Positions 2,498 through 62,956 of a stretch of 64,000 bases of DNA are shown one piece after another. Source of the stretch: an uncultured bacterium (GTDB lineage Bacteria > Patescibacteriota > Minisyncoccia > Phycocordibacterales > CAINVO01). The translations under genes were made by a program, and so were the position numbers. The DNA lies in contig CAINVO010000021.1 in NCBI GenBank assembly GCA_903854195.1, forward strand, positions 14,032 through 78,031, given 5' to 3'. Numbering within the stretch: position 1 is the first letter of the stretch; every line of letters begins with the position of its first letter. The notes under the pieces are model-generated. The model was not told the origin of the DNA and made no database searches. It saw only the letters and a list, made by a program, of their open reading frames with translations.

Positions 2498-2515
2498 AAC
2501 TTAGGAATAAGAAAT

Positions 2516-6660: not shown

Positions 6661-6703
6661 CATTTATATATTGTTAGTATTAGTTTTCGGTTGAATTATT
6701 AAA

Positions 6704-7024: not shown

Positions 7025-7065
7025 CTTGAAACAATTAAGAAAGGAGAAGTTCTAGTTGTTGATAA

Positions 7066-8379: not shown

Positions 8380-8423
8380 AGCCTCTAGTATATCAGATAA
8401 ATAAATGATAATATGTCACCACT

Positions 8424-8494
8424 GCGGGATTAGTTTAATGGTAGAATAACAGTTTTCCAAACTGTGGGTGGGAGTTCGATTCTCCCATCCCGCA
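8424..8494 (+). tRNA. tRNA-Gly (anticodon TCC), 71 nt, no encoded CCA
   Basis: Acceptor gcgggat/atcccgc; anticodon stem acagt/actgt with loop ttTCCaa; T-arm gggag-ttcgatt-ctccc. Confidence 0.75.
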
Positions 8495-8534
8495 CAACCA
8501 ACGTCGACGTAAAAGGTCACCCATAATAATTATT

Positions 8535-19150: not shown

Positions 19151-19181
19151 AGTTGTATCATTTAAATTAAGCTAATATTTC

Positions 19182-20433: not shown

Positions 20434-20880
20434 ATGAACTCACTAATTGAACTATTAATTGCTTTAGGTATAGGGATTTTATTGGTAGGAATTTCCTTCT
20501 TCTCATTTAGTGGTTTGGTAAACTATAACGCTCTAGATAAGGATTCTTCCACTGTGATATCCTATATTCAAAACGCACGAAATTTAACGCTTTCCTCAAA
20601 AAATTATAAAGAATATGGTGTGCATTTTGCTAGCTCAACTGTAACTGTGTTTCCAGGTACATCTTATTCAAACTCTTCAGAAAATTTGGTTTATACTTTG
20701 AATCCACGCGTTGTAATAAAATCTATCGATTTGGTTGGTGGCGGAAATGATTTTTATTTTAATAAGGTGACGGGGAAGCCAAGTGCATCAGGAGCAATCA
20801 CATTGTCACTCATTCCAAATAATTCTAATTCAAGTTCAACTCGCACGATAAGCATTTACGCTACGGGTTTGTCAGAGTAA
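20434..20880 (+). CDS. Pilin/pseudopilin-like protein with an atypical leader
   Basis: N-terminal 'MNSLIELLIALGIGILLV' is a prepilin-like hydrophobic helix with Glu near +5. It lacks the canonical Gly at -1. Confidence 0.45.
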   Translation: MNSLIELLIALGIGILLVGISFFSFSGLVNYNALDKDSSTVISYIQNARNLTLSSKNYKEYGVHFASSTVTVFPGTSYSNSSENLVYTLNPRVVIKSIDLVGGGNDFYFNKVTGKPSASGAITLSLIPNNSNSSSTRTISIYATGLSE

Positions 20881-20889
20881 AATACAATT

Positions 20890-21390
20890 ATGTTTTCTGA
20901 AAAAAATAAATCAGATTTTTCAAGGGGGGTTAGTCTCGTTGAAGTTTTGATTGGGGCATCAATAATCACTATAGCTCTTGTTGTTATAGTAAATATTTAC
21001 GCGTCACTTGTTTCAATTTCAATAAGAAACACACCTAGAATTCAGGCAACTCTTTTGGCAGAAGAAGGAATAGAAGCTGTAAAAATTATGAGGGATGGTG
21101 ATTGGACATCCAACATTGGAACACTGTCTAATTCAACGAACTACCATCTATATTGGAATGGCACCTCATGGATTTCGACAACCACATCGTTTTTAATTGA
21201 TGATGTTTTTGATAGAAATTTTACCATCTCTGATGTTTATAGGGATTCAAATTTTAACATTACAAATACTGGCGGGGGTACTTTTGATGCAGGAAGTAAG
21301 AAAGTTACAGTTACCGTCTCGTGGGCAAATTCAAATGGAACATCAACAACCTTTTTGTCTGGGTATGTTTTTAATACATTCAATAACTAA
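20890..21390 (+). CDS. Type IV prepilin-like protein (class III signal peptide)
   Basis: '...SRG|VSLVEVLIGASIITIALVVI' gives the canonical G|(F/V)xxxE cleavage/methylation motif. Confidence 0.6.
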   Translation: MFSEKNKSDFSRGVSLVEVLIGASIITIALVVIVNIYASLVSISIRNTPRIQATLLAEEGIEAVKIMRDGDWTSNIGTLSNSTNYHLYWNGTSWISTTTSFLIDDVFDRNFTISDVYRDSNFNITNTGGGTFDAGSKKVTVTVSWANSNGTSTTFLSGYVFNTFNN

Positions 21391-21402
21391 AGGTAATTTA
21401 AA

Positions 21403-21957
21403 ATGAAAAAATATTTTTATAAAATTAGAAAAATAGATTTAAAAAAGAATATTAAAGATAATATGGCTTTTTCATTAGTTGAAACTATCATTTATGTTGC
21501 ACTCCTAGCTATTATTTTAACAGTAATAATAGATTCAATTTTAGTGATGAGTAATGCTTATCGTTCAGTGACAGTTACTAGAAATATTGAAGATACCGCA
21601 CTGATTTCAATGGATAGGATGACTAGAGAAATTAGAAACGCTTCAAGTATCGATGAAACACAAACAGTATATAACAATGATCATGGGGCTATATTTTTAA
21701 ATTCAATTGATGCATCAAATACACCAACGTCTATAAAGTTTTATTTAAGTGGTCAAAGAATATTGATAGATGAGAATGGCACTTATCTTGGACCTATCAC
21801 TTCATCAAATGTCTTAGTTGATTCCTTGTACTTTAGGCCAATAGTTTCATCCTCATCTGTAGGTATAAAAATTGAAATGGTATTGGAATCTGGAACTGGT
21901 CAATATTTAAAAAAGGTAAATTTTTATGACACTGTTGTATTAAGAGGTTCGTATTAA
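21403..21957 (+). CDS. Type IV prepilin-like protein (Ala at -1)
   Basis: '...DNMA|FSLVETIIYVALLAIIL' has a prepilin motif with Ala instead of Gly at -1. Confidence 0.5.
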   Translation: MKKYFYKIRKIDLKKNIKDNMAFSLVETIIYVALLAIILTVIIDSILVMSNAYRSVTVTRNIEDTALISMDRMTREIRNASSIDETQTVYNNDHGAIFLNSIDASNTPTSIKFYLSGQRILIDENGTYLGPITSSNVLVDSLYFRPIVSSSSVGIKIEMVLESGTGQYLKKVNFYDTVVLRGSY

Positions 21958-21972
21958 AATATTAAATTAATA

Positions 21973-23298
21973 ATGAAAAAAGAGCACCAACTAAATATTC
22001 ATCAATCCGGGCAAGCGGTACTAACGGCGGTGATTTTCTTTCTCGTCATTTCTCTCCCTATCGTAATGGGTGTTTCAACTCCAGTAACTTTTCAAGCAAG
22101 AGCTGTGTCTGATTTTATTGCTTCAAAACAAGGTTATGTTTTAGCTGATTCACTAAATGATGATGTTTTGTATAGGTTGAATAATGGACAGACATTGCCT
22201 TCAACAATTGTTTTAGGCTTGAATAACGCAACGGCAACAGCCGGAGTTACTTCAAGTGGTGGTGTGGTAGATATTTTAACATCGGGACTAGTTGGAAATA
22301 ACATAACTCGTGTAGTTAGGGGAATATTTAGGCAGGGAGTTGGCATTTCACTAAACTACGCAATACAGGCAGGAGACGGTGGAATAAATTTTTCTAACGG
22401 ATCGGGTGTAAATGGGAGTGTCTATTCTGAAGGATCTGTTGTTGGGGATGATAACTCATATATTTCGGGATCTGCCACGGTTTCAAGTAGTACAGCTTCA
22501 ATTAATGGTAGTTACTCAGGTGCAATGTCTATAGGAAATGGGGTTTATGGGGATTCCTTCGCTAATGCAGTAATGAACACAAAGGTTTCTGGAAATTTAT
22601 ATTGTCAAACGGGTAGCGGTAATATTAATTGGACCTCAGCAAGTATTTATTGTAATACCTCAAGAGCAAATCCAATCTCTCTAAATTTTCCTATAACAGA
22701 TAATCAAATCCAAGCGTGGAAAGATAACGCTTCAAATGGAAGTGTAATCCATCCTACTGCCGGACAATACGTTTTGGATGGAACATCGACGGCTACCCTT
22801 GGACCAGCAAAAATTGTCGGCAATTTGGATATTAAAGATAGTGCCGTTGTCACTCTAGGTGGAAATTTGTGGGTTACTGGAAATATCACCATTGAAGATT
22901 ATGGAAAAATTCAATTAGCAAGCAGTTTTGATTCAAACAGCTCTGTTGTTTTGGCAGATAAAAAAGTACTAATAACAGGTGGAAGTCAGGTTGTGGGGAC
23001 TGGAGTTGATGGAAGTTATGTAATGGTTGTTGATACAAGTAACTGCCCAGAAGACGTTTCGTGTGGGTCACAGCCTGCAATATTAACCAACGGATGGACG
23101 GGATCAGCCCTTCTTGTGGCCCCAAATGGAAGCATTAATCTTGACGGTGGCACAACTACAGGTGCTATAATCGGTAAAAAAGTTTCTCTATTAGGGACTT
23201 CGACTGTTATGTATGGTGGGGGGTTAATAAAATTAAATTTTTATTCTAGTTCAACTGAGCCATGGAATGTTAAAACTTTGGAAGAAGTTGCTAATTGA
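21973..23298 (+). CDS. PilX-N-like minor pilin / pilus tip protein with a Gly/Ser/Asn/Thr-rich beta-helix-like C-terminal domain
   Basis: N-terminus 'HQSGQAVLTAVIFFLVISLPIV' resembles the PilX N-terminal domain. The C-terminal region has repetitive 'G.N..I.D....TLGGNLWVTGNITI'-type beta-helix repeats. Confidence 0.45.
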   Translation: MKKEHQLNIHQSGQAVLTAVIFFLVISLPIVMGVSTPVTFQARAVSDFIASKQGYVLADSLNDDVLYRLNNGQTLPSTIVLGLNNATATAGVTSSGGVVDILTSGLVGNNITRVVRGIFRQGVGISLNYAIQAGDGGINFSNGSGVNGSVYSEGSVVGDDNSYISGSATVSSSTASINGSYSGAMSIGNGVYGDSFANAVMNTKVSGNLYCQTGSGNINWTSASIYCNTSRANPISLNFPITDNQIQAWKDNASNGSVIHPTAGQYVLDGTSTATLGPAKIVGNLDIKDSAVVTLGGNLWVTGNITIEDYGKIQLASSFDSNSSVVLADKKVLITGGSQVVGTGVDGSYVMVVDTSNCPEDVSCGSQPAILTNGWTGSALLVAPNGSINLDGGTTTGAIIGKKVSLLGTSTVMYGGGLIKLNFYSSSTEPWNVKTLEEVAN

Positions 23299-34132: not shown

Positions 34133-34215
34133 CGACCTCATAGTAAAGTAGCCACTACGTAAATAAACACGTAGATGCATTTGTGCATCACGGAAAAAAT
34201 CGAAAAAATAACAAA

Positions 34216-34638
34216 ATGCCAACAGTAAATCAACTTTTAAAGCGCAAACGAACAAAAACACCTAGAAAGTCAAAAGCTATTGCCTTGACTCGTGGTTTTA
34301 ATGCACTTAAAAATCGCCCAACTTACTACCCAGCTCCATTTAAACGAGGTGTTTGTACAAAAGTTACAACAAAGACTCCCAAGAAGCCTAACTCAGCTAT
34401 TCGAAAGATTGCTCGAGTTCGTCTTACAAACGGTCTTGAAGTTACTGCTTACATTCCAGGTGAAGGACACAATCTACAGGAGCACTCAGTGGTAGTTCTA
34501 CGAGGTGGAAAAGTAAAGGATATTGGTGTACGTTATACTATTGTACGAGGTGTGCTTGATACTCAAGGAGTTGAGAAGCGCCGAAAGGTTCGCTCGATGT
34601 ATGGTACAAAGAAGCCTAAAAAAGCTGGTTCTAAATAA
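34216..34638 (+). CDS. rpsL: 30S ribosomal protein S12; start trimmed to 'MPTVNQL'
   Basis: '[14 protein letters not shown]...[10 protein letters not shown]' is canonical S12. Confidence 0.9.
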
Positions 34639-34665: not shown

Positions 34666-35136
34666 ATGCGAAGAAAAGTTAAAAATCGAAATATCGTAAA
34701 ACCTGATCCTGTTTTTCAATCTGAAAAAATTGAGAAGTTTGTTAACTATGTCATGGAAAGAGGAAAGAAAAATGCTGCTAGATCTATTGTTTATGGAGCT
34801 TTTGATGCTATTAAAGAAAAGGAAAAGGTAGAAAACGCTTTAGAAATTTTTGATACTGCTCTTAAAAATACAGCCCCACAAATGGAAGTACGTTCAAGAC
34901 GTGTTGGAGGTGCCAACTATCAGGTTCCTCGCGAAGTTCGTGCTGAACGAAGAAGTTATCTTTCAATGAAATGGATCATTCTTGCAGCACGAGCAAAGAA
35001 AGGCCAACCTATGCATCTTAAACTTGCCGATGAAATTATTCTTGCTTCAAAAAATGAAGGAGAAGCTGTTAAAAAGCGTGAAAATACTCACAAGATGGCG
35101 GATGCAAACAAGGCTTTTGCTCACCTAGCCTGGTAA
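34666..35136 (+). CDS. rpsG: 30S ribosomal protein S7
   Basis: 'MRRKV...[20 protein letters not shown]' is the canonical S7 sequence. Confidence 0.9.
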
Positions 35137-35260: not shown

Positions 35261-35563
35261 ATGGGGATAAAATCTCACAAATTTAGCGTTAGGAAGGTAA
35301 AGAAAACAAAAAAACAAAAAAGAGCGGAAAAAAGGGTGCATAGAAATAAATATGAACATCTGGTCCCAGTAAGAATTTTTGACTATGATCCAATTGATAA
35401 AAAGTATAGAACCTTGCCGTTACCCTCAAAACCGGGGGAAGTTTATGGAAAAGGTTACATCGTGATCCACCATGGCCGAAGATATAGTCTTCGGTATGAA
35501 GTTACCATTCCGAAAAATGGGATTGCTAACGGGGATTTTATACTCGTCGGCAGTGTTAAATAG
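35261..35563 (+). CDS. Hypothetical small basic protein (100 aa) inserted between rpsG and fusA
   Basis: Strong SD (GGAAAGGAGG, 8 nt upstream). Terminators on both sides. Lys/Arg-rich N-terminus 'VRKVKKTKKQKRAEKRVHRNK'. No known family recognised. Confidence 0.45.
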   Translation: MGIKSHKFSVRKVKKTKKQKRAEKRVHRNKYEHLVPVRIFDYDPIDKKYRTLPLPSKPGEVYGKGYIVIHHGRRYSLRYEVTIPKNGIANGDFILVGSVK

Positions 35564-35631: not shown

Positions 35632-35722
35632 TTCTTAAATAATGCTATTTTACGAAGACGACTTTCAACTATTATACAAGTTGGTACTAGAGTCGGTTAT
35701 TTTATTTATAAAACAATATTTT

Positions 35723-37864
35723 ATGGAAAGAGATTATTCACTCGAAAAAACACGTAACTTCGGTATCATTGCGCACATCGATGCTGGTAAAACAACTACA
35801 TCTGAGCGTATTCTTTATTATACTGGTATGAGTCATAAGATTGGTGAGGTTCACGAGGGTGAAGCTACAACTGACTGGATGGAACAAGAAAAAGAGCGAG
35901 GTATTACTATTACTGCCGCTGCCATTACTTGTTTTTGGAACCCATCATATATGGGCAAGGATCAATCACTAAAACATCGTTTTAATATTATTGATACACC
36001 TGGGCACGTAGATTTTACTGTAGAGGTGGAACGATCTCTTAAGGTGCTTGATGGAGGAGTTGTTGTTTTTGACGGTGTGGCCGGAGTAGAACCACAATCA
36101 GAGACAGTTTGGAGACAGGCAGATAAATATAACGTACCACGTGTTTGTTTCATAAATAAATTAGACCGAACAGGAGGCTCATTTGAGCGTTCTTATCAAT
36201 CAATTTTGGATCGTTTAAATAAAAATGCTGTCCGCATGCAGATTCCAATTGGAGAAGAAGAAAAATTTGAGGCTGTTATTGATCTTATGAAGATGAAAGC
36301 ATATTACTTCGAAGGTGATATGGGAATTAACGTTCGTGAAGATGAAATTCCAGAAGCTTATTTGGCTGATGCAAAAAAATATCGTGCAGAGCTTGTAGAG
36401 CGTATTGTAGAAAATGATGACGGTCTTATGTCAGCATATCTTGAAGGTAAGGAAATTTCTATTTCTGCTCTAAAAGAAACTCTCCGAAAGGCAACTATTG
36501 CAAATAAAATTTTCCCAGTGTTTACAGGTTCTGCTTTGAAAAACAGAGGAGTCCAACTTGTGCTTGATGCCGTTGTTGATTATCTACCATCACCACTAGA
36601 TGTTCCTCCAGTAAAAGGAACTGATCCAGCGAATGGTGAAGAAATTTTGAGACATGCATCTGACACTGAACCTTTTTCTGCTCTTGCTTTCAAGCTTCAG
36701 TCAGATCCGTTTGTAGGTCAGCTTACTTTCTTCCGCGTTTATTCAGGTACAGTAGAAGCTGGTTCTTATCTTTACAACTCAACAACAGGAAATAAGGAGC
36801 GCCTTGGACGTATTGTTAGACTTCAAGCAGATAAACGTGAAGAAGTTAAAAAAGTTTACGCTGGAGAAATTGCAGCAGCTGTAGGTCTTAAAGAAGCAAA
36901 AACATCTCACACTTTTTGTGATGAAAATAATCCAATTGTTCTTGACCCTATTAAGTTCGCAGAGCCAGTTGTGTCATTGCGTATTGAACCAAAGACAAAG
37001 GCTGATCAAGAGAAGATGGGTATGGCTTTGAAAAAACTTGGAGATGAGGATCCAACTTTCCGTATTTCTACAAACCCTGAAACTATGGAGACTATTATTT
37101 CAGGAATGGGGGAGCTTCACCTAGAAATCATGGTTGATCGTATGAAACGTGAATTCGGAGTTGAGGCAAATGTTGGTAAGCCTCAGGTTGCATATCGAGA
37201 AACAATTCTCGGCACAGCAGAAGCTGAACATAAATATATTAAACAGTCTGGAGGTAAAGGTCAGTATGGTCACGTTAAGATTACTTTGAAGCCTATGGAA
37301 AAACTTGAAGAAGGCGCAAAGATTCCTAAAAATGTTAAGAGATACGATGACTTTGAATTTATCGATAGTATCAAAGGAGGTGTTATTCCTCAGGAATTTA
37401 TTCCTGCAGTTGAAAAGGGTGTACGTGAAGCTATGGAGCGAGGTATCGTTGCCGGTTTCAAACTTGTAAATGTGTCTTGTGAACTTACATTCGGTTCTTA
37501 TCACGATGTTGACTCATCCGAAATCGCATATAAGATCGCAGGTTCCCAAGCCTTCCAGGAAGGTGCTAAACGAGCAAAACCAGTTATTCTAGAACCTATT
37601 ATGAAAGTAGAAGTTGTAACACCTGAGCAGTTCATGGGAGACATCACTGGTTCTCTTTCTGCAAAACGCGCTCAAATCGAAGGTATGGAAGATCGCGGCA
37701 TGAACAAAGCTATTAAGGCTATGGTTCCATTGTCTGAAATGTTTGGTTATACAACAGCTCTTCGTTCCATGACAGCAGGACGTGGATCAGCAACTATGGA
37801 GTTTGATCACTACGAAGTTGTTCCTCCAAATGTTGAGAAGACTATTGTTGAAACACGTAAGTAA
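35723..37864 (+). CDS. fusA: Elongation factor G; start trimmed to '[25 protein letters not shown]'
   Basis: G-domain motifs ([21 protein letters not shown]) and EF-G domains II-V. Confidence 0.9.
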
Positions 37865-37977
37865 TAAAAATATAAAAACCCTTTCGGTGACACGCATAAA
37901 TCTTTACTAAGATTTTGCTATGCTCGGAGCCAAGCTCCTGTGCAATGTCACCGAAAGGGTTTTTATATTTTTATTAC
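37861..37977. repeat. 32-bp perfect inverted repeat with a 53-bp spacer, overlapping the fusA stop codon
   Basis: 37861-37892 'gtaataaaaatataaaaaccctttcggtgaca' is the exact reverse complement of 37946-37977. Pairing continues imperfectly into the last fusA codons, giving about 44 bp with 2 mismatches. Confidence 0.7.
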
Positions 37978-38014
37978 TTACACGTTTCCCCATTATTATT
38001 AAGATTGGAAATAG

Positions 38015-38056
38015 AAAAAATCGGTCACGCGCTCGCGCGTGACCGATTTTGTTTTT
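38015..38056. terminator. Bidirectional rho-independent terminator between fusA (+) and the 38082..38828 gene (-)
   Basis: aaaaaa-TCGGTCACGCGC-tc-GCGCGTGACCGA-ttttgttttt. Perfect 12-bp GC-rich stem. Confidence 0.7.
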
Positions 38057-38081
38057 GTTGTTTTTCAACAACTTACTTTTG

Positions 38082-38828
38082 TTATGACCCGCCAGCGATC
38101 GCAGCATTTTTATCATCAACAAGTCTGTTGTAAAGGCTACGAAGTTCCTCGAAGCTTTTGTAAGTACCTCCGCCCATTGAATACTCCATACAAGCATAGA
38201 CCCCTTCAGGACTTTCCAACGCATCGTTTCCGATGAATAGTTGAAACTTCTGATCCGGAAATCCGCCAGATGAGATTCTCGAACAAAGTTCAGAGAGTAT
38301 CCCGACATTCCATTCGTCGTTCCTGTGCTCTTCACCCATGATGGCCCCTTCAATCAAATTCAAGCACCCAGAAACAAAGTGATATTCTGTTGGAATATAT
38401 ATGATCCGTGGAACATGATTGATAAGAAGAGTCCCTTGTATCCTTCCGAAGTAGAACGCCTTCTTTGTCATTCTTGGGCCTTGGTCATCTGACCTCATTC
38501 TGACATTGTGTTTTTTTACACCCACCAATACGTACTGTCCTTGGTTTTCATCAATTGTTTTTTTCAATCCAATTAATGTTTCAACAATCTCCTCATGGAA
38601 ACCAAAGGAAGATATAACACTGTCAGTGAAATCTTCTCCAGTGGTAATCAATCCTTTGCGAAGTTCAGCTAAAAGTCTGGCTTCTTTTTCGGATTGTCGG
38701 CTTTGGATTTCTTCAATGGCAGAATTTGACTCCGCTCTGATTTTTGTAACTTCACTTTTTGAAGCAGCTTGTTCCTGCCAAAAAGTTTCGATGTCTTTAA
38801 ACCCTACGGGTTTCTCTTGTTCACTCAT
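38082..38828 (-). CDS. Hypothetical protein (248 aa) with an N-terminal coiled coil
   Basis: No confident family. The C-terminal 'MGGGTYKSFEEL' has a faint resemblance to the LOG/SLOG 'PGGxGTxEEL' motif, which is insufficient for assignment. Has its own terminator. Confidence 0.4.
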   Translation of the reverse strand: MSEQEKPVGFKDIETFWQEQAASKSEVTKIRAESNSAIEEIQSRQSEKEARLLAELRKGLITTGEDFTDSVISSFGFHEEIVETLIGLKKTIDENQGQYVLVGVKKHNVRMRSDDQGPRMTKKAFYFGRIQGTLLINHVPRIIYIPTEYHFVSGCLNLIEGAIMGEEHRNDEWNVGILSELCSRISSGGFPDQKFQLFIGNDALESPEGVYACMEYSMGGGTYKSFEELRSLYNRLVDDKNAAIAGGS

Positions 38829-38904
38829 TATGTGTATTTCTGTTCACAAATCTACTCTGAAAACAAAAGAAGTCAATATTTATAAAATATAAATATGATA
38901 AAAA

Positions 38905-38956
38905 TAAAAGAAAAGACCAGTCATACGTTTCCGTGCGACTGGTCCGTTTTTTTTTG
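38905..38956 (-). terminator. Rho-independent terminator after the 38987..39520 gene
   Basis: GACCAGTC-atacgtttccgtgc-GACTGGTC, followed on the + strand by tttttttt and preceded by aaaag (A-run). Confidence 0.55.
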
Positions 38957-38986
38957 GTAAAAACTTGTTAGGTTCAGTAAACTGAA

Positions 38987-39520
38987 TCATTCCTCTTCAG
39001 CGATGCGCCTGAAATGTTGATGCATTTTTTCTTTAAGTTTGCTGAATTCGTGGACGATCATTCCACCAGAATCATTGATGAAAAATTCAACCTGAAGATT
39101 AACTTTTGCACCCTCCTCTCCTGTCTGACGAAAGTCACTTCGATATGCAATAATAATTTTTCCGAGTGAATATGCATATCCAATTTCTGAAGCAGTGCCA
39201 CTGTCAACTTCCTGTCCATCAAGAAGTGCGAGAACGATTCTTGAACAACGTATTGCTTCGACGTTTCGTTCTCCAGTGATTTTGTTTGCCTCTTGAAATC
39301 TTCTGTCACGGATTTTTCCAAGTGGAAGTTTGAGTGCCTTTTCGAAAAGTTCGAGTGGCGCCTTTTCAAATGGATTGATTACTTCGTACCCAATTTTTTT
39401 GAGCACCGGAGTAATCTTTTTTTGAAGAAAAAATCTCCCTGCCTCTGAAAACCCAAAGGGGTTAGCAAGGTAAACTCCGGGTTTTTTATACCCGATTTCT
39501 GTTGTAGTGTTACTTTTCAT
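38987..39520 (-). CDS. Nucleoside 2-deoxyribosyltransferase-like protein (PF05014 family)
   Basis: 'PGVYLANPFGFSEAGR' and 'DSGTASEIGYAYSLGKIIIAY' match the NDT signature, including the catalytic Glu in the DxGTxxExGxA box. Confidence 0.6.
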   Translation of the reverse strand: MKSNTTTEIGYKKPGVYLANPFGFSEAGRFFLQKKITPVLKKIGYEVINPFEKAPLELFEKALKLPLGKIRDRRFQEANKITGERNVEAIRCSRIVLALLDGQEVDSGTASEIGYAYSLGKIIIAYRSDFRQTGEEGAKVNLQVEFFINDSGGMIVHEFSKLKEKMHQHFRRIAEEE

Positions 39521-39618
39521 TTTATATCAGTTCAATCTAGATTCCATATTAAGGAAAAAAGTAGAATAAGCAAGCTTATAGGGTCTTCACCCCGGTATTT
39601 TAATTTTTGCTTTTTAAA

Positions 39619-39671
39619 ATAAAAAACCATCAATTTAAGTTGTGAAGCTTAAATTGATGGTTTGTTTTTTT
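39619..39671. terminator. Bidirectional terminator after the 39723..41411 gene
   Basis: aaaaaa-CCATCAATTTAAG-ttgtgaag-CTTAAATTGATGG-tttgttttttt. Perfect 15-bp stem. Confidence 0.6.
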
Positions 39672-39722
39672 GAGTTTTTCTTTCGGGTCAGTGAAACTGT
39701 TTCGTAATCCCGACCTTTTTCA

Positions 39723-41411
39723 TTAGAGTTTGAACGATACCGAGACTCCTTCAATTTTGGAAACTTTCTTCAAAGCACTTTCCACTAAAGGGTGTTTTTT
39801 TGGTAATCCAAATCCAATTAAAAACTGTCGCCTCATTCCATGATGCCTAAAATGAAATGATGCCATATTCACTTCCATTTCCTTGAATATAGAAGAAATT
39901 TCATTTAGGAGGCCTCTACGGTCTGTTGATCTGTTGAAGCTGACAATGGCAACCCTTTCTGGATTACGTTCTTCCATAAGGGCTATGAGCTCATCAAAGA
40001 GGTTGTTTGATTCTTTAATGTATCGCGGCCCAACATATTTTGCAGCTTCGTCGAAGAAGTTGCCGAGAGGGGCATTGTCGCCGCTCTTTATACAATCTGC
40101 TATACAGTTGCGTACTCTGGTAGCAATCTCCAAGGACCGATCAATACTTCTTAGAGCATAGATGTTTTCTGTCATTATTCCAGGATAAACGGCACGATTT
40201 TTTAGCATTCGGCCATATTTGCACAATGAAATGTTGTAGAAACCTGTGGCTAATTTCATATACTCTCCAATAGGTATGCCAGACTCTTTTAAAGAAAGGC
40301 ACTCTATTAAATTGTAAAAATGTTCTTTACCTTGGATTTCACCCATTATTTCATCATGCCTCTCTGCGTTTATCCATACAGCCTTGGCTCCTGTCGAAAG
40401 AAGGAATTCCTCTACCCAGGCTTTTTTGCCATTTAACCTCCCGTTGCAGACGGCTATTGCTCGACCTTTCCAGCTCCTTGCGGATGGGGGAAAGGTTGGG
40501 TGAAACCCAATTACTTGAGCCTTTGTCGCAAGCATGGCTTCCATTGCTGGAGCTTTTACAGATGTGATGTCAAAGACTAGCTGGTCTTCCTTAAGATGCT
40601 TAGAAATCTTTGAAATAAGCCCTGGGGTCTCTTTTGTTGGGGTACAGAATACAACAACATCGGATCTCCTTATTATTCGCCATATTTTTGACGGATGGGT
40701 ATCTTCACTGATTGACTCAGTTTTGCAACCAAGTTCTTTGAACCTCCTTATAAATGCTAGTCCAAACTTACCCTTTCCTCCAAATACGGCTATATTTAAG
40801 GGTTCAACATAAGGATCGTGATAAAAAACACCGAAAGTGGTGCTATTTCGCGGACAATCCTGAATTTGTTCCTCTAGCACTTTTAATCCATATTTTTTTG
40901 CAATTTTCAGACTTCCTATTGCTGCGATTGTTCTGGATTCTATGCATGTGGCAGTTCTCCTTGCAGCTAAGGCTGTGGATTTTGAGGCTAAAAACCTCAA
41001 TTTCTTAAGGTGAGCATGTTTTTTTATGTTCCCTCTGCATTGATCGTAAGCCTCTCTTTTCGTACTTATAAGTGTTATTTCCTTTACGGATTTAATGCTT
41101 GGATGTACGAGCAAGTTGTGACTTATTTGAAGGGTGATTTTGTCAATTTGTCCAATGTTTGGATTGTTTTTAAGTAATTTTTTGCATACCCTTGTGACGC
41201 CCATAATTTCTCCACAAGTGGAATTATTTATGGGTAGAACTGCAAAAACTTCACTTTCTCTTAGTCTTTTTATTATTTCTCTGTGTGAGTCACACAAAGT
41301 TACAAAAAATTGACCATTTTTCCACTGATAATGCTTTGCAAAAGCAAAAGCTGCCACTTGGCCATTTGTTCCTGCTGGTCCTAGGGCCAGTATTTCTCTA
41401 ATTTCATTCAT
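39723..41411 (-). CDS. Fusion protein: prephenate dehydratase-like domain, prephenate/arogenate dehydrogenase-like NAD-binding domain, and a C-terminal ACT domain
   Basis: N-terminal 'ILALGPAGTNGQVAA', 'LPINNSTCGEI', 'ISTKREAYDQC' and 'AAIGSLKIAKKYGLKVLEEQIQDCPRNSTTF' are PDT-like. Middle 'IAVFGGKGKFGLAFIRR...VFDITSVKAPAMEAM...ERHDEIMGEI' is TyrA-like. C-terminal 'RVAIVSFNRSTDRRGLLNEISSIFKEMEVNMASF' is ACT-like. Confidence 0.6.
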   Translation of the reverse strand: MNEIREILALGPAGTNGQVAAFAFAKHYQWKNGQFFVTLCDSHREIIKRLRESEVFAVLPINNSTCGEIMGVTRVCKKLLKNNPNIGQIDKITLQISHNLLVHPSIKSVKEITLISTKREAYDQCRGNIKKHAHLKKLRFLASKSTALAARRTATCIESRTIAAIGSLKIAKKYGLKVLEEQIQDCPRNSTTFGVFYHDPYVEPLNIAVFGGKGKFGLAFIRRFKELGCKTESISEDTHPSKIWRIIRRSDVVVFCTPTKETPGLISKISKHLKEDQLVFDITSVKAPAMEAMLATKAQVIGFHPTFPPSARSWKGRAIAVCNGRLNGKKAWVEEFLLSTGAKAVWINAERHDEIMGEIQGKEHFYNLIECLSLKESGIPIGEYMKLATGFYNISLCKYGRMLKNRAVYPGIMTENIYALRSIDRSLEIATRVRNCIADCIKSGDNAPLGNFFDEAAKYVGPRYIKESNNLFDELIALMEERNPERVAIVSFNRSTDRRGLLNEISSIFKEMEVNMASFHFRHHGMRRQFLIGFGLPKKHPLVESALKKVSKIEGVSVSFKL

Positions 41412-41510
41412 AACTTACAATCTTTTCTCTCAATTTTTGTCAAAATTCTATTGAAAACTCTGAGGCGATACTACGCTACTCATGGATAAAGTCAAAACCG
41501 TAAAAATAAT

Positions 41511-41538
41511 TTGACTTTCCAAAGGTATTTGCTATGAT
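41511..41538 (+). promoter_or_regulatory. Candidate sigma-70-type promoter for tuf and the downstream S10 genes
   Basis: TTGACT-16 nt-TATGAT, ~200 nt upstream of the tuf ATG. A 9-bp perfect hairpin (aagtttaac/gttaaactt, 41688..41717) sits just before the tuf start. Confidence 0.4.
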
Positions 41539-41736
41539 GACCCGTATCGCGTTTTGCGCTTTTTTTGTCTACGCTGAGAAATTGTTTTCCAATTACTTAG
41601 CTGGTGCAGACCAAGTGGGGCAGAATCAAGATAAAAGTCATTTTATTATCATTCATCAATAATCATATAAGTGCTAGGTGGTAAAGTTTAACAAGTTCTC
41701 GCGCGTTAAACTTTGATACTTAGCCAAAAAAAACAT

Positions 41737-42927
41737 ATGGCAGAAATATTTGATCGATCAAAGCCACACGTTAACGTAGGTACCATTGGACACGTTGACC
41801 ACGGCAAAACAACTCTAACAGCAGCTATTTTGAATGTGCTTTTCCGCGCTGGAAAAGATGTAAAACTTAAAGCTGTTGACCAGATTGACTCAGCCCCAGA
41901 AGAAAAAGCTCGTGGAATCACAATTGCTCTTTCTCACAACGAGTACTCAACAGATGCTCGTCACTATGCTCACATTGATGCCCCAGGTCACGCCGACTAC
42001 ATCAAGAACATGATCACAGGTGCCGCTCAGATGGACGGTGCTATTCTAGTGGTTGCTGCTACAGACGGTGCTATGCCCCAAACTCGTGAGCACGTTCTTC
42101 TAGCAAAGCAGGTGGGTGTACCTAAAATTATCGTTTTCCTAAACAAGTGTGACATGGTTGATGATCCAGATATGATCGACCTTGTTGAAGCTGAGATCCG
42201 TGAACTTCTAGCAAAGCAGGGATTTGATGAGAACTGTCCAGTTATCCGTGGTTCTGCTCTTAAGGCTCTTGAAGCAAAAGACAACACAGATGAATGGTCA
42301 AAGAAGGTTCTAGAACTTGCTGACGCTCTTGATACATATATTCCTATGCCTATTCGTGAGACAGATAAGCCTTTCCTTATGCCTGTAGAAGATATCTTCT
42401 CAATTGAAGGACGAGGCACAGTGGTAACTGGACGTATTGAAAGAGGTATTTGTAAATTAGGTGATGAAATCGAAATTATCGGTATCAAAAACACAGTAAA
42501 GACAACTATCACTGGTATTGAAATGTTCAACAAACAGCTTACCGAAGGTATGGCTGGAGACAACGCAGGTATCCTAGTTCGAGGTCTTAAAAAAGAAGAC
42601 ATCACTCGAGGTCAGGTTCTTGCAAAACCAGGTTCAGTAACTCCTCACACAGATTTCGAATCAGAAGTTTACATTTTGAAGAAAGAGGAAGGTGGCCGTC
42701 ACACTCCATTCTTCACAGGTTACAAACCACAGTTCTATATCCGTACAACTGACGTTACAGGTGAAGTAACTTTGAAAGAAGGTGTTGAAATGGTTATGCC
42801 AGGAGATACAGTTACATTCAAGGTAAAACTAGTTTCACCAGTTGCCCTAGAAGAGAAACAGAGATTTGCTATCCGTGAAGGTGGTAAAACAGTAGGCGCC
42901 GGAGTTGTAACAAAAATCGTTGCCTAA
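41737..42927 (+). CDS. tuf: Elongation factor Tu; start trimmed to '[27 protein letters not shown]'
   Basis: Canonical EF-Tu throughout. Confidence 0.95.
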
Positions 42928-42955: not shown

Positions 42956-43318
42956 ATGGCAACAAAAGAATCGACAAAGAAAAAGGAGGCAGCTCACAAA
43001 ACCGAAGATGGTTTTGGAAAGCTTCGCATTCGTGTCCGAGCATATGAATCAAAAATTCTTGATGCTTCGGTTAAGCAGATTATGGATACAGCTATCCGTT
43101 ATGATGCAAAGATTCTTGGTCCTATTCCCTTGCCAACTGAGATAAAAAAATATACAGTCAACCGATCGGCGTTCGTCTACAAAAATGCGCGAGAACAGTT
43201 TGAGATGCGCGTCCACAAGCGCTTGCTTGATATCGTCAACCCTTCACCAAAAATTATAGAAGCTTTGACAAACATGAGCTTGCCATCAGGTGTGACAATC
43301 GACGTTAAAATGATGTAA
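42956..43318 (+). CDS. rpsJ: 30S ribosomal protein S10 (with a short N-terminal extension)
   Basis: 'LRIRVRAYESKILDASVKQIMDTA...GPIPLPT' is the S10 core. Confidence 0.85.
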   Translation: MATKESTKKKEAAHKTEDGFGKLRIRVRAYESKILDASVKQIMDTAIRYDAKILGPIPLPTEIKKYTVNRSAFVYKNAREQFEMRVHKRLLDIVNPSPKIIEALTNMSLPSGVTIDVKMM

Positions 43319-53254: not shown

Positions 53255-54532
53255 ATGAACACTTTTTTCCAAAAACTTAAGCTGGTGTTCCAAGACAAGA
53301 GTCTTAGAAACCGTGTTATCTTCATGCTCGCTTCACTAGTAGTGTTTCGTTTATTGGCAGTTATTCCTATCCCTGGTGTTGATATTGGAAAGCTTCAGGC
53401 TTTTTTTAACAGCAACCAGTTTTTTGGTTTACTTAATATTTTTTCAGGAGGTGGACTGTCAACTCTGTCTATCGTAATGCTTGGAGTTGGTCCATATATC
53501 ACTGCATCTATTATTATGCAGCTTTTGACAATGATGTCTCCGTCTCTAAAAGCTATGTATCAAGAGGATGGGGAAGCTGGACGTAAAAAATTCAGTCAGT
53601 ACTCAAGACTTTTGACTGTGCCTCTAGCTTTGATCCAGGGCTTTGGTTTTATTATTTTGTTAGAGCGTCAAGGAGTTCTTGGAACACTTGGAGGTATGTC
53701 TTTGATTACAAGTGTTATCTCAATTGTAGCTGGATCAGTACTTCTAATGTGGTTAGGTGAACTTATGACAGAGTTTGGAATCGGAAATGGTGTGTCTATG
53801 ATTATTTTCTCAGGTATCGTTTCTCGTATTCCAACAGCTCTTAGTCAACTTGCTTACAGTTACACTCCAGCTCAAATTCCTTTGTATGTTGGAATCGTGA
53901 TTGTTGCCCTAGCTGTCATTTTCCTAGTAGTTGTCATTACAGAAGCAGAGAGACCAATTCCTGTTACATATGCAAAGCAGGTACGTGGAAACAAGGTGTA
54001 TGGAGGTGTTTCAACTTATCTTCCTTTACGTCTAAATCAGGCTGGAGTTATTCCAATAATCTTCGCTTTGTCTATTCTTCTCTTTCCTCAAATGATTTTT
54101 AATGTTTTGAGTCATGTTGGTAATGCTACTGTAAACGCAATTTCAAAAAATATTCTAGATATTATTGCTAATCAATGGGTATATGCTATTGCTTATTTTG
54201 TACTTGTTTTCTTGTTTACATATTTCTACACTGCAGTAACTTTTGATCCACATCAGATCTCAACAAACCTACAACGTGGAGGTGCTTTTATTCCAGGTAT
54301 TCGTCCAGGTGATTCTACTTCAGAGTATCTTTCAAAGGTTGTGACTCGTATCACACTTGTAGGTGCGGTATTTCTAGGAGCTATCGCTGTTCTTCCAGTT
54401 ATCCTTCCTTTGCTTTTCGTAGGTATTCCAAAGTCTATGGCGGTTGGAGGTACAGCCGTACTTATCGTGGTATCAGTAGTATTGGATCTTGTTAAAAAGA
54501 TTGACGCTCAGGTTTCGATGAGAGAGTATTAA
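53255..54532 (+). CDS. secY: Preprotein translocase subunit SecY
   Basis: Ten TM helices with 'LGVGPYITASIIMQLL' and 'GTGVSMIIFSGIVS'-type motifs. Confidence 0.9.
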   Translation: MNTFFQKLKLVFQDKSLRNRVIFMLASLVVFRLLAVIPIPGVDIGKLQAFFNSNQFFGLLNIFSGGGLSTLSIVMLGVGPYITASIIMQLLTMMSPSLKAMYQEDGEAGRKKFSQYSRLLTVPLALIQGFGFIILLERQGVLGTLGGMSLITSVISIVAGSVLLMWLGELMTEFGIGNGVSMIIFSGIVSRIPTALSQLAYSYTPAQIPLYVGIVIVALAVIFLVVVITEAERPIPVTYAKQVRGNKVYGGVSTYLPLRLNQAGVIPIIFALSILLFPQMIFNVLSHVGNATVNAISKNILDIIANQWVYAIAYFVLVFLFTYFYTAVTFDPHQISTNLQRGGAFIPGIRPGDSTSEYLSKVVTRITLVGAVFLGAIAVLPVILPLLFVGIPKSMAVGGTAVLIVVSVVLDLVKKIDAQVSMREY

Positions 54533-54587: not shown

Positions 54588-55376
54588 CTACTCAGTGGCT
54601 GTTTTCCAAGCCAAACCAAAAATCATTTTCATCATGCCGTGAATGATTTCATCTTCGATGATGACACCGATGACATTTTCCTTGCCTAGTTTTGTTATGG
54701 ACACTTTATTTTTTCCATAGATTGTGAGTTCTGCTTCATACGGAAAGATTTCTTTAGAAACAAATTTTATCACAGGCCATATGTTTTTGCTGGTACCAGC
54801 AAAAACCGCTTCGTTGTAACCTCGTGCAGCTTTTGTATCAGGTATAATTGCTCGAGTGGTGATGCCGATTCTCTCTTTGCCTTTAATAAACTCACGAAGT
54901 TTGCCAGTAGGGAGGTAGTTTTGAAATTTCTCAGCATTTGAAAAAGCAAGCATTTCATATTTTTCATTTCCAGAAATCATATCCATACAAATATCGTAGA
55001 CAGCATCAGGTCCTTCAAAGTAAAGCACACGTGGTTTGTTTGTTGTAAGATTAAATAACCCCTCAAGTTCTGGAATTAATTTCTTTGCTTTATCCATCTG
55101 ATCTTCGGCTATTCGGACTTTGTCTTTTGCATAACGCATCAGTTTTTCTGGCTTATCTACCTGATAGTAAAGCTTATTCTTCTTTTCAATCTCATTTACT
55201 AGGCCTTTTATTGTCAGATCCAGAAGCACTTTGTAGACAGTGGTCCTTTTGAGCTTGGTTATTTCAGCTATTTTAGAAGGGAAGGCACCGCCAAGCTCTA
55301 CCAAAGCAGCGTATATAAGTGCCTCTTTTTCTGAAAGACCAGCATTTTGGATTTGTTTAGATAGTTTGTTTTCCAT
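54588..55376 (-). CDS. TrmB-family transcriptional regulator
   Basis: N-terminal wHTH 'LSEKEALIYAALVELGGAFPSKIAEITKLKRTTVYKVLLDLTIKGLV' is typical of TrmB. Confidence 0.7.
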   Translation of the reverse strand: MENKLSKQIQNAGLSEKEALIYAALVELGGAFPSKIAEITKLKRTTVYKVLLDLTIKGLVNEIEKKNKLYYQVDKPEKLMRYAKDKVRIAEDQMDKAKKLIPELEGLFNLTTNKPRVLYFEGPDAVYDICMDMISGNEKYEMLAFSNAEKFQNYLPTGKLREFIKGKERIGITTRAIIPDTKAARGYNEAVFAGTSKNIWPVIKFVSKEIFPYEAELTIYGKNKVSITKLGKENVIGVIIEDEIIHGMMKMIFGLAWKTATE

Positions 55377-55571
55377 ATGTATGTGATTTATATAGCTAAA
55401 TTGTACTAAATACCATGGATATTGTCAATTTAAACGGACAAAATATTTAAAACTAGAAATAATGTCTTATTTAAAGGCATTATTGTGTAATATTTTGACA
55501 TATATAATGCACATATTTAAAATATGTTGTATAATATCGTTATAAATTAATTATTAAGATTTAGTAAAAAA

Positions 55572-56666
55572 ATGAATAAAATTACAAAAGCAATTTTGGC
55601 CATAGTAGCTATCGCGTTAATCGTTTGGGGTATAGTGGCTATAGTAGAAAAGCCGTCCACTTCATCAACAAAGGCAACTGTTAAGATTGGTCTAGTTCTG
55701 CCAATGACAGGAAATGCCGGTTTCTTGGGTGAGTCTGCACAAAATGCTGCAGAGCTCGCTCTCAAAGATGCCGGTGTTACAAAGAATGACTATAAGCTGG
55801 TATTCGAAGATGACTCCTTTGATCCAGTAAAAACAGTAACAGCTGTAAACAAAATGATCAGTGTTGATCATGTAAGTTCTATCGTTACTTTTGGATCAGG
55901 TACAAGTAACGCAGCTAGTCCCATTACTGAGGCAAATAAAATTCCTCACTTTGGTCTAGCTTCTGATCCAACATCAGCAAAAGGTGATTATAACTATATT
56001 CACTGGACACCTCCGTTTAAAGAAGGTCAGCTTCTAGCGCAGGAGCTGGTTCGCAGAGGATATAAGAGCGTATCTATTATAGGTACAAATCATCCTGGAA
56101 CTTTGGCAGTAACAGATTCTTTAAGGCAGGCTCTTCAGGGAACCGATGTGAAAATAGTTTCTTATGATTTAACAAATGTTGGTGATAAAGATTTCAAAAC
56201 TGTCATCAATAAAGTGAAAACTGCAAATCCAGACATCATCGTCTTGGAACAGTTTTCACCCGAAATTGAAATCACCGCAAAACAAATCAAAGAGCTTGGT
56301 ATTAAGACACCGGTTACTTCTGTAGAAACATTTGCATGGAGTAATCAGATAGGTTTATTTGAAGGGGATTGGTTTGTTGCAGATGCAAAAGTTTCACCGG
56401 CATTTGTTGCGGAGTACAAAGCTGCTTATGGTAAAAATCCAGCACCAGGTGCATCATATATATATGATTTAGTGACATTATTAGTGAATATACAGGAAAA
56501 GTCAGACAAACCAATTGCGGCAGCAGATATTCCTACAGTTCTAAATCAAATGGGCTCATACAACTCAGCACTATTTGGAAACGTGGCAATCGATAAAGAT
56601 GGATTTTTCATCACTGATGCTTCGGTACAGATCATTAAGGATGGTAAGGCAGAGATGGTGAACTAA
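55572..56666 (+). CDS. ABC-transporter substrate-binding protein, Leu/Ile/Val-binding (LivJ/K, Peripla_BP_6) family; membrane-anchored
   Basis: N-terminal anchor, then 'KIGLVLPMTGNAGFLGESAQNAAELALKDAG...YKLVFEDD' (LIVBP signature). Confidence 0.75.
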   Translation: MNKITKAILAIVAIALIVWGIVAIVEKPSTSSTKATVKIGLVLPMTGNAGFLGESAQNAAELALKDAGVTKNDYKLVFEDDSFDPVKTVTAVNKMISVDHVSSIVTFGSGTSNAASPITEANKIPHFGLASDPTSAKGDYNYIHWTPPFKEGQLLAQELVRRGYKSVSIIGTNHPGTLAVTDSLRQALQGTDVKIVSYDLTNVGDKDFKTVINKVKTANPDIIVLEQFSPEIEITAKQIKELGIKTPVTSVETFAWSNQIGLFEGDWFVADAKVSPAFVAEYKAAYGKNPAPGASYIYDLVTLLVNIQEKSDKPIAAADIPTVLNQMGSYNSALFGNVAIDKDGFFITDASVQIIKDGKAEMVN

Positions 56667-56726
56667 TTAAACAGTAGGCAAAAACAAAAAAGCATTAGCG
56701 AAATACTCGCTAATGCTTTTTTGTTT

Positions 56727-57461
56727 TTACAAACTCTCCCACAATATCTCAAATATAGATCTGAATACGTCTACCATTGGGGGGATAGCGATGACTACAC
56801 ATAGAGCATCTACTTCAGGGCCCACAATTACAATTTTATCGTTGTAAATATCGATAGTACTTTTGAACTTGTACTTTTCTGGCATGTATTTATATTCACG
56901 GAGGAGAGATGTGTCGTTTTGACCTTCTTCACCCATTGAGTCACCAGACAAAAGTAGTTTTACTCGAGTGCTATTTTCCGCTCGCTTTTTTCTGAAGTCT
57001 AGAAAGAAATCACGATCAGTGTTTAACCAAGTCGAAGCACTTCCAATAATGTAATATTCTTTATTTTTGTATTCACTTAGGATTTCATCATAGAAAAGTT
57101 TAAGTTCATCTTTTGATTTGATGAATCTCACACCGTAAATACTCTTGTCGGTTTTGGCTAAGCCCTCTAGATAGGGGATTATTTTATTAAAAGACTTAAT
57201 CTTTCTTTCAAAAAGAGTGCCTAGTTGTTGTGGTTTAACAGGATAAAAGAGTTTTTTACCTCCTTGTTCATAGACAGTGACTATTCCTTGGGAGATGAGT
57301 CTTTCGAGGATTGGATAGACCGTGGTCCTCTTTATATTTACTTCGCTAGCCAAAGATGTAGCGCTGCAGCCACCAGTTTTTAAAAGGCCTACATAAAGGT
57401 CTATTTCTTGCTCAGAAAGTCCCAAATCCTTCAATATATCTAGATAGTTATTAGTATTCAT
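56727..57461 (-). CDS. TrmB-family transcriptional regulator (second copy, paralog of 54588..55376)
   Basis: 'LSEQEIDLYVGLLKTGGCSATSLASEVNIKRTTVYPILERLISQGIV'. Confidence 0.7.
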   Translation of the reverse strand: MNTNNYLDILKDLGLSEQEIDLYVGLLKTGGCSATSLASEVNIKRTTVYPILERLISQGIVTVYEQGGKKLFYPVKPQQLGTLFERKIKSFNKIIPYLEGLAKTDKSIYGVRFIKSKDELKLFYDEILSEYKNKEYYIIGSASTWLNTDRDFFLDFRKKRAENSTRVKLLLSGDSMGEEGQNDTSLLREYKYMPEKYKFKSTIDIYNDKIVIVGPEVDALCVVIAIPPMVDVFRSIFEILWESL

Positions 57462-57547
57462 GTTGTTATTTTTTTACGACAGCTTACCTAAATATAGTAT
57501 ATCAGGCTAAAAATAAAGTCAATACCAGCTATACTTGTCTAAAATAG

Positions 57548-57576
57548 TTGACAATAGGCTAAGAATAGTATATAAT
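57548..57576 (+). promoter_or_regulatory. Consensus sigma-70 promoter for the second binding-protein gene
   Basis: TTGACA-17 nt-TATAAT, exact consensus, 41 nt upstream of the 57618 ATG. Confidence 0.55.
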
Positions 57577-57617
57577 GAACGTATTAAAATATTATAAATA
57601 AATCAAATAAGAAATTC

Positions 57618-58739: not shown

Positions 58740-58825
58740 ATAATTAATTAATAAATTACCAAACAGAAAGCCCTAATCATAGGGCTTTTGTGTTAAAATA
58801 TTGCTAATATATTCAGAAATAATTT

Positions 58826-59692: not shown

Positions 59693-59719
59693 AGATGAGG
59701 AATTTGCAATAATAAAAAC

Positions 59720-60586: not shown

Positions 60587-60593
60587 TAAAATT

Positions 60594-61346: not shown

Positions 61347-61384
61347 ATAATTTTAAAAAACTTTTAAATAAAATAAATTATAAA

Positions 61385-62927: not shown

Positions 62928-62956
62928 ATACTTAAATATTAGAATAAAATTTTAAA

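Follow-up and report, generated by a model that had tools for sequence, protein, structure and literature searches.

In a 64,000-nucleotide stretch of DNA from an uncultured bacterium (GenBank assembly GCA_903854195.1, contig CAINVO010000021.1, positions 14,032–78,031; hereafter the window), three minus-strand genes lie between fusA, which encodes EF-G, and tuf, which encodes EF-Tu. The best explanation for this arrangement, and one that we regard as probable, is that the str operon is split in two and that the split leaves a slot of changing gene content, which in this genome holds three unrelated genes. The fusA open reading frame (ORF; 35642–37864, plus strand) and tuf (ORF 41713–42927, plus strand, beginning with TTG; likely true start ATG 41737) are separated by 3,872 bp. 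On the minus strand within this spacer lie an orphan ORF of 248 amino acids (aa) nearest fusA (38082–38828), a 177-aa ORF of the nucleoside 2-deoxyribosyltransferase (NDT) family in the middle (38987–39520), and, nearest tuf, a 562-aa ORF (39723–41411) in which prephenate dehydratase (PDT), prephenate dehydrogenase (PDH), and probable ACT domains are fused. All three have positive codon log-odds in the annotated frame and negative values in the other five. The ORF layout thus bears out the first-pass annotation of the window, which had placed three minus-strand genes here and noted a break in the canonical str order: fusA and tuf are not adjacent within tens to a few hundred bp. The same annotation treated the split as exceptional, a view that did not survive comparison with relatives, in which it is the rule. 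The block does exist, as a variable insertion of unrelated genes that is typical of this lineage; it is not a nucleotide-centred system. The unusual items are instead the PDT-PDH-ACT architecture, whose gene is the most unusual of the three in the block, the clade-wide cargo slot, and a hairpin in the tuf leader.

The window EF-G is 81–82% identical to EF-G of Zambryskibacteria and Paceibacterota metagenome-assembled genomes, and the source genome is a Paceibacteria-type Patescibacterium. We compared 80 fusA loci from species-representative genomes, locating the neighboring translation genes by tblastn. Among relatives with EF-G at least 69% identical, the fusA–tuf spacer ranges from 125 to 6,690 bp (median 2,370 bp) and exceeds 1 kb in 15 of 21; seven additional relatives have no tuf inside the 4–10 kb covered. 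Within this group neither the rpsL–rpsG spacer (median 37 bp) nor the tuf–rpsJ spacer (median 116 bp) ever exceeds 1 kb, and the rpsG–fusA spacer does so in 40%. The fusA–tuf median is 535 bp in more distant Patescibacteria, and the two Firmicutes loci sampled have spacers of 44 and 156 bp. By this measure the spacer in the window is ordinary for its clade. Because the tuf–rpsJ spacer is always short in relatives, tuf appears to act as the first gene of the S10 unit; in the window rpsJ (42956–43318, plus strand) begins 28 nt past tuf.

The cargo carried between fusA and tuf is mostly unrelated from genome to genome, with 155 of 205 spacer ORFs across the relatives being singletons. It includes pyrC-pyrD-pyrE-pyrF, purD, an HlyD/FtsX efflux pump, a subtilase, RsmE, an ATPase resembling type IV secretion system (T4SS) coupling proteins, and peptidoglycan-binding surface proteins; nucleotide-metabolism genes are recurrent. 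None of the window's three genes was found in the 80 EF-G-related loci (up to 10 kb each side of fusA). A minus-strand slot ORF of 248 aa in one relative (L021) was considered as a homologue of the window's 248-aa gene and rejected, as it encodes an RsmE methyltransferase. As a separate observation, the rpsJ–rplC spacer measures 1.6–2.2 kb in four of 20 close relatives (L006, L009, L015, and L020), so that the S10 operon itself is broken in some Paceibacteria.

The signals that flank the slot are consistent with two transcription units. Promoter-like sites are no commoner in the region than in shuffled sequence (9 versus 9.6), and we accept a tuf promoter because it is conserved in relatives, not because of the site count. 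The site in question, TTGACT-16-(TG)TATGAT (41511–41538, plus strand), is the best-scoring in the region, and a TTGAC(A/T)-16-TGnTA(G/T)(T/G)AT element lies 130–250 nt upstream of tuf in about 15 close relatives, so the tuf promoter TTGACT-16-TATGAT named in the first-pass annotation is upheld by its conserved type and position. Directly after it come a short GC hairpin (41549–41559) and a U7 run (together 41549–41566, plus strand), with a counterpart in most close relatives, where the stems differ. At the other end of the slot, most close relatives carry an ordinary 11–19-nt terminator hairpin 10–30 nt after fusA. The fusA terminator hairpins together with the conserved tuf promoter argue for two separate units, with the spacer between them as a cargo slot.

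In the window, the fusA end is more elaborate. A GC-rich perfect hairpin with 16-nt arms (38017–38050), terminator-like on both strands, lies between the convergent fusA and 248-aa genes, and it is preceded by a long inverted repeat with 55-nt arms (37838–37892 and 37946–38000; 87%), a 36-nt perfect core, and a 53-nt spacer. The left arm takes in the final fusA codons (E-T-R/C-K-stop) and the right arm is an inverted copy of this fusA 3′ end with its A-tract/GC stem and the 5′ half of the terminator. This region folds at −104 kcal/mol (z = −13.5), far past chance; the repeat occurs once in the window and is absent from the relatives compared. A different repeat stands at the post-fusA site in one relative (L010), with 24-nt arms and an 84-nt loop. 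The long repeat is probably an extended bidirectional terminator between convergent genes, and palindrome extension or template switching may, speculatively, have produced the inverted copy. Both hairpins that had been reported after fusA are therefore present with altered dimensions: the supposed 32-bp perfect hairpin is the longer, imperfect repeat with its 36-nt core, and the arms of the 12-bp GC hairpin measure 16 nt.

Within the block, a terminator-like hairpin of 16–18 bp with T-runs on both sides (39624–39663) separates the 562-aa and NDT genes, and a 7-bp stem (GACCAGT/ACTGGTC) with a 16-nt loop followed by a T-run (38915–38945, minus strand) lies downstream of the NDT gene. The latter was read by eye from the sequence, having been missed by the terminator scan because its loop exceeds 8 nt. 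Two promoter-like sites, identified by consensus match only, are TTGACT-16-TAGATT (38849–38876, minus strand), 20 nt upstream of the 248-aa ORF, and TTGACT-16-TAGTAT (41468–41495, minus strand), which faces the 562-aa gene and diverges from the tuf promoter. With minor corrections to arm lengths, each block gene does have its own terminator-like hairpin, as had been claimed.

Taken together, the classical str operon of this Paceibacteria clade (Patescibacteria, or Candidate Phyla Radiation (CPR)) would be split into an rpsL-rpsG-fusA unit that ends in a terminator and a tuf-rpsJ-led unit that begins with its own promoter and a structured leader. The space between them would be a permissive slot whose content turns over between genomes; in this genome it would hold three independently transcribed, functionally unrelated minus-strand genes, and the stacked bidirectional hairpins would keep the converging transcripts of fusA and the block apart. 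The gene content, the way the slot varies between genomes, and the conservation of the tuf promoter are direct observations; the boundaries of the transcription units and the route of cargo exchange we infer. Multigene insertions have been described between operons of the rpoBC-str-S10-spc-alpha supercluster of Proteobacteria (PMC6735719; PMC8046335), which likewise place unrelated genes between collinear translation units while each unit retains its own promoter and terminator. In contrast to those cases, the break here divides the classical str operon itself, parting fusA from tuf, and is the majority state of a clade, and the inserted content is hypervariable and, in this genome, antisense.

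Alternatively, the block could have arrived recently as an island by horizontal transfer, or have arisen through a genome-specific local inversion or rearrangement, with the inverted copy at the fusA end marking the breakpoint; we consider this unlikely. Its genes are absent near fusA in the 80 relatives, for two of the three no search gave a close homologue, their G+C content at third codon positions (GC3) lies 1–2 standard deviations above the window mean, a 36-nt perfect inverted duplication spans the fusA stop codon, and DNA uptake is provided for by ComEC and type IV pilus genes in the genome. However, Pfam, NCBIfam, and PHROGs searches of the block found no integrase, transposase, or other mobility domain, direct repeats do not flank it, and the repeat at its fusA end has no partner near tuf. 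The arms of the inverted repeat are merely 53 nt apart, so the block is not bracketed by them. Moreover, the overall GC content of the block equals that of its flanks, its relative synonymous codon usage (RSCU) distances (0.12–0.15) fall inside the range of the window genes (0.129±0.028), and no donor lineage is identifiable. Ordinary turnover of the slot, possibly by old transfer, is therefore favored over a recent island, because mobility genes and repeats are absent, GC resembles the flanks, and RSCU is in range.

The NDT gene is the block member with the clearest relatives. Its product scores 75 bits on PF05014 (Nuc_deoxyrib_tr), for which the cutoff is 28.8 (E 7e-21; profile positions 1–114 of 117), and carries the catalytic box DSGTASEIGYA at residues 106–116. 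Bacteria and DPANN archaea supply more than 1,100 homologues at 40–50% identity. A confident AF2 model (pLDDT 88.7) that drew on 31 homologues returned NDTs as its top 30 Foldseek matches (E ∼1e-7, TM 0.57–0.70), led by CtNDT, the E. faecalis enzyme 7M5H, and DpNDT 7O62; DNPH1 and CMP glycosidases ranked lower (E 5e-4 to 3e-3). CtNDT and other tetrameric NDTs are also the nearest solved structures by sequence (E 4e-9). The protein shares with the tetrameric NDTs (CtNDT from Chroococcidiopsis thermalis, PDB 8PQP–8PQT; DpNDT; E. faecalis NDT) the PF05014 domain, the fold, and the YLAxPxGFS (with its Tyr), D-x-G-x-x-x-E-x-G, DFR, and N-L-x motifs. The catalytic nucleophile of these enzymes is a glutamate (CtNDT E88, LlNDT E98; PMC10913048), and a Tyr at the CtNDT Y7 position marks 2′-deoxy substrates, with Phe found in ribo-acting members (PMC7308715). 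Glu112 of the window protein aligns with E88 and Tyr17 with Y7; both are invariant in an alignment of 31 subfamily members, as are N86, D106, N141, and Q143.

The window protein differs from the tetrameric NDTs in overall identity (22–28%) and at three further points. The Asp at the CtNDT D62/LlNDT D72 position is not kept and is replaced by Asn86, a register that is probable and not certain, given a 5-residue indel close by. Around the leaving-group acid CtNDT D111, most subfamily members have DNEG; the window protein reads QTGE-EG at this point, one residue shorter and with a Glu nearby. Finally, the partner-subunit NLM motif reads NLQ, with Asn141 kept and Met replaced by Gln. By sequence and model, the 177-aa protein is a real NDT-family enzyme, and the claim that the gene retains an intact catalytic box holds. 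It belongs to a widespread, distinct subfamily with Asn at the Asp62 position and, given the best PDB match of E 4e-9, without a solved structure; no assayed member of it came up in the literature consulted. The motifs themselves are observed in the sequence, and from them and the fold we infer the activity: the enzyme would cleave the N-glycosidic bond of 2′-deoxynucleosides via a Glu112-linked intermediate, by transfer or hydrolysis. Most likely it would exchange or remove 2′-deoxynucleoside bases for salvage, through a covalent Glu112-deoxyribosyl intermediate. A role in nucleoside salvage, suggested from the first, is reasonable for a member of the NDT family whose nucleophile motif is intact, and it would fit a genome in which ComEC, RecJ, and nucleases are encoded as well.

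The window NDT and a handful of others, including 2 of the 120 best homologues, carry QTGE(E/K)GA in place of LSxDNEGSx, with the one-residue deletion. This subtype is found in four distinct genomic contexts and is directly upstream of tuf in two, the window and a distant Patescibacterium (L088, equal to L091). In the latter (L088 1423–3929; ENA ERZ27253378 k141_1378320), an NDT with QTGEKGAV lies 850 bp upstream of tuf, with a 225-aa protein of no known family between them; its neighbors of no known function are unrelated to the window's genes. A second candidate link between an NDT and a tuf-like gene (L092) was rejected, the gene being an archaeal aIF2-gamma.

These contexts raise the alternative that the NDT gene is an old resident beside tuf in a sublineage of Patescibacteria, an ancestral linkage perhaps co-regulated with translation genes, and that only its neighbors turn over. 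The rarity of the subtype and its place beside tuf in two of its four known contexts speak for such a history, to which we give little credence: the NDT genes of the window and of L088 are in opposite orientations, the subtype lies away from tuf in L093/L115 and L094, the 80 EF-G-related loci contain no NDT within at most 10 kb on either side of fusA, and the two NDTs are about 51% identical where the EF-Tu proteins reach 69%. The proximity in L088 may reflect an old linkage or a hotspot coincidence, and it rescues no two-gene system.

Such a system had been proposed in the first-pass annotation, which paired the NDT with the 248-aa protein as a salvage module or a novel nucleotide-centred system. 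For the 248-aa protein, a long helix is predicted at the N-terminus and an alpha/beta part at the C-terminus. It has no Pfam, NCBIfam, or PADLOC match, matches only itself in 5.8 billion clusters, and, when all 1.84 billion representatives were searched with HMMER, found only itself and one coiled-coil segment; an AF2 model made without an alignment (pLDDT 35.7) was unusable. Its description as a gene of no known family therefore stands, and the protein appears to be a lineage-specific orphan. Since it has no homologue, no conserved NDT–partner pair is possible. Eight NDT-homologue neighborhoods have nothing in common with each other or with the window. At E ≤1, PADLOC models matched neither the NDT nor the 248-aa protein, and there was a single weak, spurious match for the 562-aa protein (LeoBC, E 0.0011, 42 residues), and PHROGs gave only NDT and PDT/PDH-like matches, with no link to defense systems.

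It is thus very improbable that the NDT and 248-aa genes, with or without the PDT-PDH gene, form one module for salvage, or a new nucleotide-signaling, DNA-modification, or defense system inserted in the str operon: the two genes are neighbors on one strand with 158 nt between them, the NDT/SLOG-type fold serves in some nucleotide-centred systems (with a weak LDcluster4 match here, E 7.5e-5, below cutoff), and in L088 a QTGE-subtype NDT is likewise followed by a protein of no known family before tuf, but that protein is unrelated to the 248-aa one, a terminator-like hairpin and a promoter-like site stand between the two window genes, and the NDT carries the residues (Tyr, Glu, Asp, and Asn) that characterize NDTs acting on nucleosides. 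The phyletic patterns of the genes are independent, so they do not travel together, and these patterns largely refute a module. Equally hard to credit is the variant in which the NDT and 248-aa genes, possibly with the PDT-PDH-ACT gene, make up a lineage-specific nucleotide- or metabolite-modifying system without a described counterpart, kept beside tuf.

Several points nonetheless weigh against a split operon with a turnover slot of unrelated genes. Each relative was sampled through a single species-representative genome and over at most 10 kb on either side of fusA. Transcription could run through all three genes in spite of the hairpins, making them one unit, and their GC3 is somewhat high (0.32–0.38 versus 0.274±0.052 for the window genes). 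The L088/L091 locus, whose EF-Tu is 69% identical to that of the window, has a QTGE-type NDT directly upstream of tuf-rpsJ-rplC, and therefore the presence of an NDT in the slot may not be wholly random. Furthermore, the 64-kb window contains no chorismate mutase, aminotransferase, or shikimate genes, nor any other gene of the aromatic pathway, so a metabolic role for the PDT-PDH protein is tentative.

The 562-aa protein consists of a PDT domain (residues ∼7–197), a TyrA-type PDH domain (∼205–475), and a probable ACT domain (∼490–562), with no chorismate mutase domain. The first-pass call of a PDT/PDH/ACT fusion is firm for two of its parts, as PDT (PF00800; E 5e-29, profile positions 1–177 of 181) and PDH_N (E 1.6e-10, 41 bits against a cutoff of 26.5) score above cutoff with their motifs kept, and is weak for ACT, which matched only over residues 494–524, below cutoff (E 0.016–0.06). 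The ACT domain does not directly follow PDT, since the PDH domain intervenes. All 19 NCBIfam matches are at domain level and fall far below the equivalog cutoffs, the best being NF008400 (123 bits against an equivalog cutoff of 273). A word-indexed search found no full-length relative; its best matches were chorismate mutase (CM)-PDH and CM-PDT proteins at 26–36% identity over 25–48% of the length.

The PDH half matches H. influenzae TyrA (2pv7, E 1.4e-21) and PRK11199 (E 1e-35), and its GGKGKFG, DITSVK, GFHPTF, HDEIMGEIQ..HF, and YGRML segments align with the TyrA motifs of 2pv7. The conserved GxGxxG, DxTSVK, HP(M/T)F, HDxxMxxIQ, and GR motifs, including those with the catalytic His, Ser, and Arg, are thus kept; in TyrA enzymes generally, the Ser and His act in catalysis and the Arg in substrate binding. 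In the PDT half, NSTTF aligns with NVTRF of the PDT 6vh5, so that the Thr is kept and the Arg is replaced by Thr. The Thr of the PDT TRF motif is the catalytic residue, T278 in the E. coli P-protein, and the 562-aa protein reads TTF at this motif. Judged by its conserved motifs, this highly divergent bifunctional enzyme would convert prephenate to both phenylpyruvate and 4-hydroxyphenylpyruvate.

Its parts resemble known proteins: the TyrA domain is closest to the T-protein class (AroQ-TyrA of E. coli and H. influenzae), and the PheA-type dehydratase and C-terminal ACT-like domain recall the P-protein (AroQ-PheA-ACT). A four-domain fusion is known from Archaeoglobus fulgidus, in the order TyrA-AroQ-PheA-ACT with chorismate mutase included (PMC1173090; PMC11237513). 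Unlike the fusions described there, the window protein has the order PheA-TyrA-ACT, places PDH between PDT and ACT, and has no chorismate mutase. It is a new architectural variant of a known enzyme pair.

Between its promoter and its start codon, tuf has a long imperfect leader hairpin (arms 41673–41692 and 41705–41724, plus strand), whose apical loop, AAGUUCUCGCGC, carries a conserved UCUCG. A hairpin of about 20 rungs is present in the window and nine relatives (L002 13024–13099, L009 13808–13883, L011 8237–8312, L022 12657–12733, L023 10062–10137, L024 9993–10068, L025 16809–16884, L028 8027–8102, and L033 13024–13099), ending 10–25 nt before the tuf ATG, with a loop of 11–13 nt that includes UCUCG. 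We aligned these leaders by hand on structure, fitting the alignment to each sequence's own fold, and for that reason the numbers it yields lean towards structure: the share of paired cells is 86%, a value that no shuffle reached (51±3% over 1,000 column shuffles), double-sided changes occur on all 21 rungs, and slid controls gave 0.11–0.22 against 0.96. In the same alignment identity is 35% in the arms and 60% in the loop. As an independent check, a scan of 2.6 Mb on both strands gave 5,004 T(C/T)TCG sites, ten of them in loops of hairpins with at least 15 of 18 rungs paired, and eight of these ten lie 37–53 nt upstream of tuf. RNAalifold found no structure in a MAFFT alignment of the tuf leaders, in which MAFFT had lost the register of the unequal-length stems, and a covariance model from four close sequences was too specific, recovering its seeds only. 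Rfam searches of the whole window at the gathering threshold, and of both intergenic regions at an E-value threshold, returned only tRNAs and meaningless hairpin-miRNA matches.

The leader hairpin is a candidate for a new cis-regulatory or stabilizing RNA of the tuf-S10 unit. Its arrangement of a structured 5′ leader, a terminator-like hairpin, and a conserved stem-loop near the start codon recalls leader attenuation of the S10 operon by L4 and the autoregulation of tufB (Brandis et al. 2016, as cited in PMC6735719). Unlike the E. coli S10 leader, to which it is unrelated in sequence and architecture, it belongs to no Rfam family.

Upstream of the slot, the first unit comprises rpsL (34183–34638), rpsG (34666–35136), and fusA, all on the plus strand. 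The fusA product has the Pfam domains GTP_EFTU, EFG_II, EFG_III, EFG_IV, and EFG_C, and tuf was likewise identified by Pfam. The mechanically called fusA and rpsL ORFs have N-terminal extensions of 27 and 11 residues (35642–35722 and 34183–34215) outside the alignments of relatives. The true start of fusA is likely near ATG 35723 (MERDYSLEK...), because EF-G of relatives aligns only from residue ∼20–30, and that of rpsL is probably ATG 34216 (MPTVNQL...). The rpsG–fusA spacer measures 586 bp in the window and includes a 100-aa ORF (35261–35563) with a very basic N-terminus and a weak coding log-odds (0.063 versus 0.31±0.12), for which neither Pfam nor NCBIfam gave a match and the 80 related loci offer no counterpart.

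Elsewhere the window content is typical of Patescibacteria, with a type IV pilus ATPase and platform protein, ComEC, RecJ, TIM, PGK, and many proteins of no known function. Between secY (53255–54532) and adk-map (62208–63766), the spc/alpha region is interrupted by 7.7 kb (54588–62131) that encode two minus-strand TrmB-family regulators, two LIV-type periplasmic binding proteins, two permeases, and two ATPases, which together form an amino-acid (LIV-type) ABC transporter within the ribosomal supercluster. Four consecutive plus-strand ORFs of 148, 166, 184, and 441 aa without a Pfam match (20434–23298) come immediately after the genes for the type IV pilus ATPase and platform (17360–20396) and probably encode divergent pilins or pilus assembly proteins. 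Near the start of the window (241–3307), genes for an NYN-domain protein, a tyrosine recombinase (1442–2497), and an exo/endonuclease-phosphatase adjoin a loose cluster of four tRNAs (5275–8495); this region could mark where an integrated element ends, or its recombinase could be a XerC/D housekeeping enzyme.

The supposedly invariant fusA–tuf junction is, in a large clade of ultra-small bacteria, a hypervariable slot, which bears on synteny-based annotation and binning, and the slot is informative on the gain and loss of accessory metabolism in reduced genomes. The covarying tuf/S10 leader hairpin with its conserved loop is a candidate new regulatory RNA of these bacteria. CPR organisms are generally thought unable to make amino acids, and a PDT-PDH-ACT protein in such an organism hints at partial-pathway complementation with a host.

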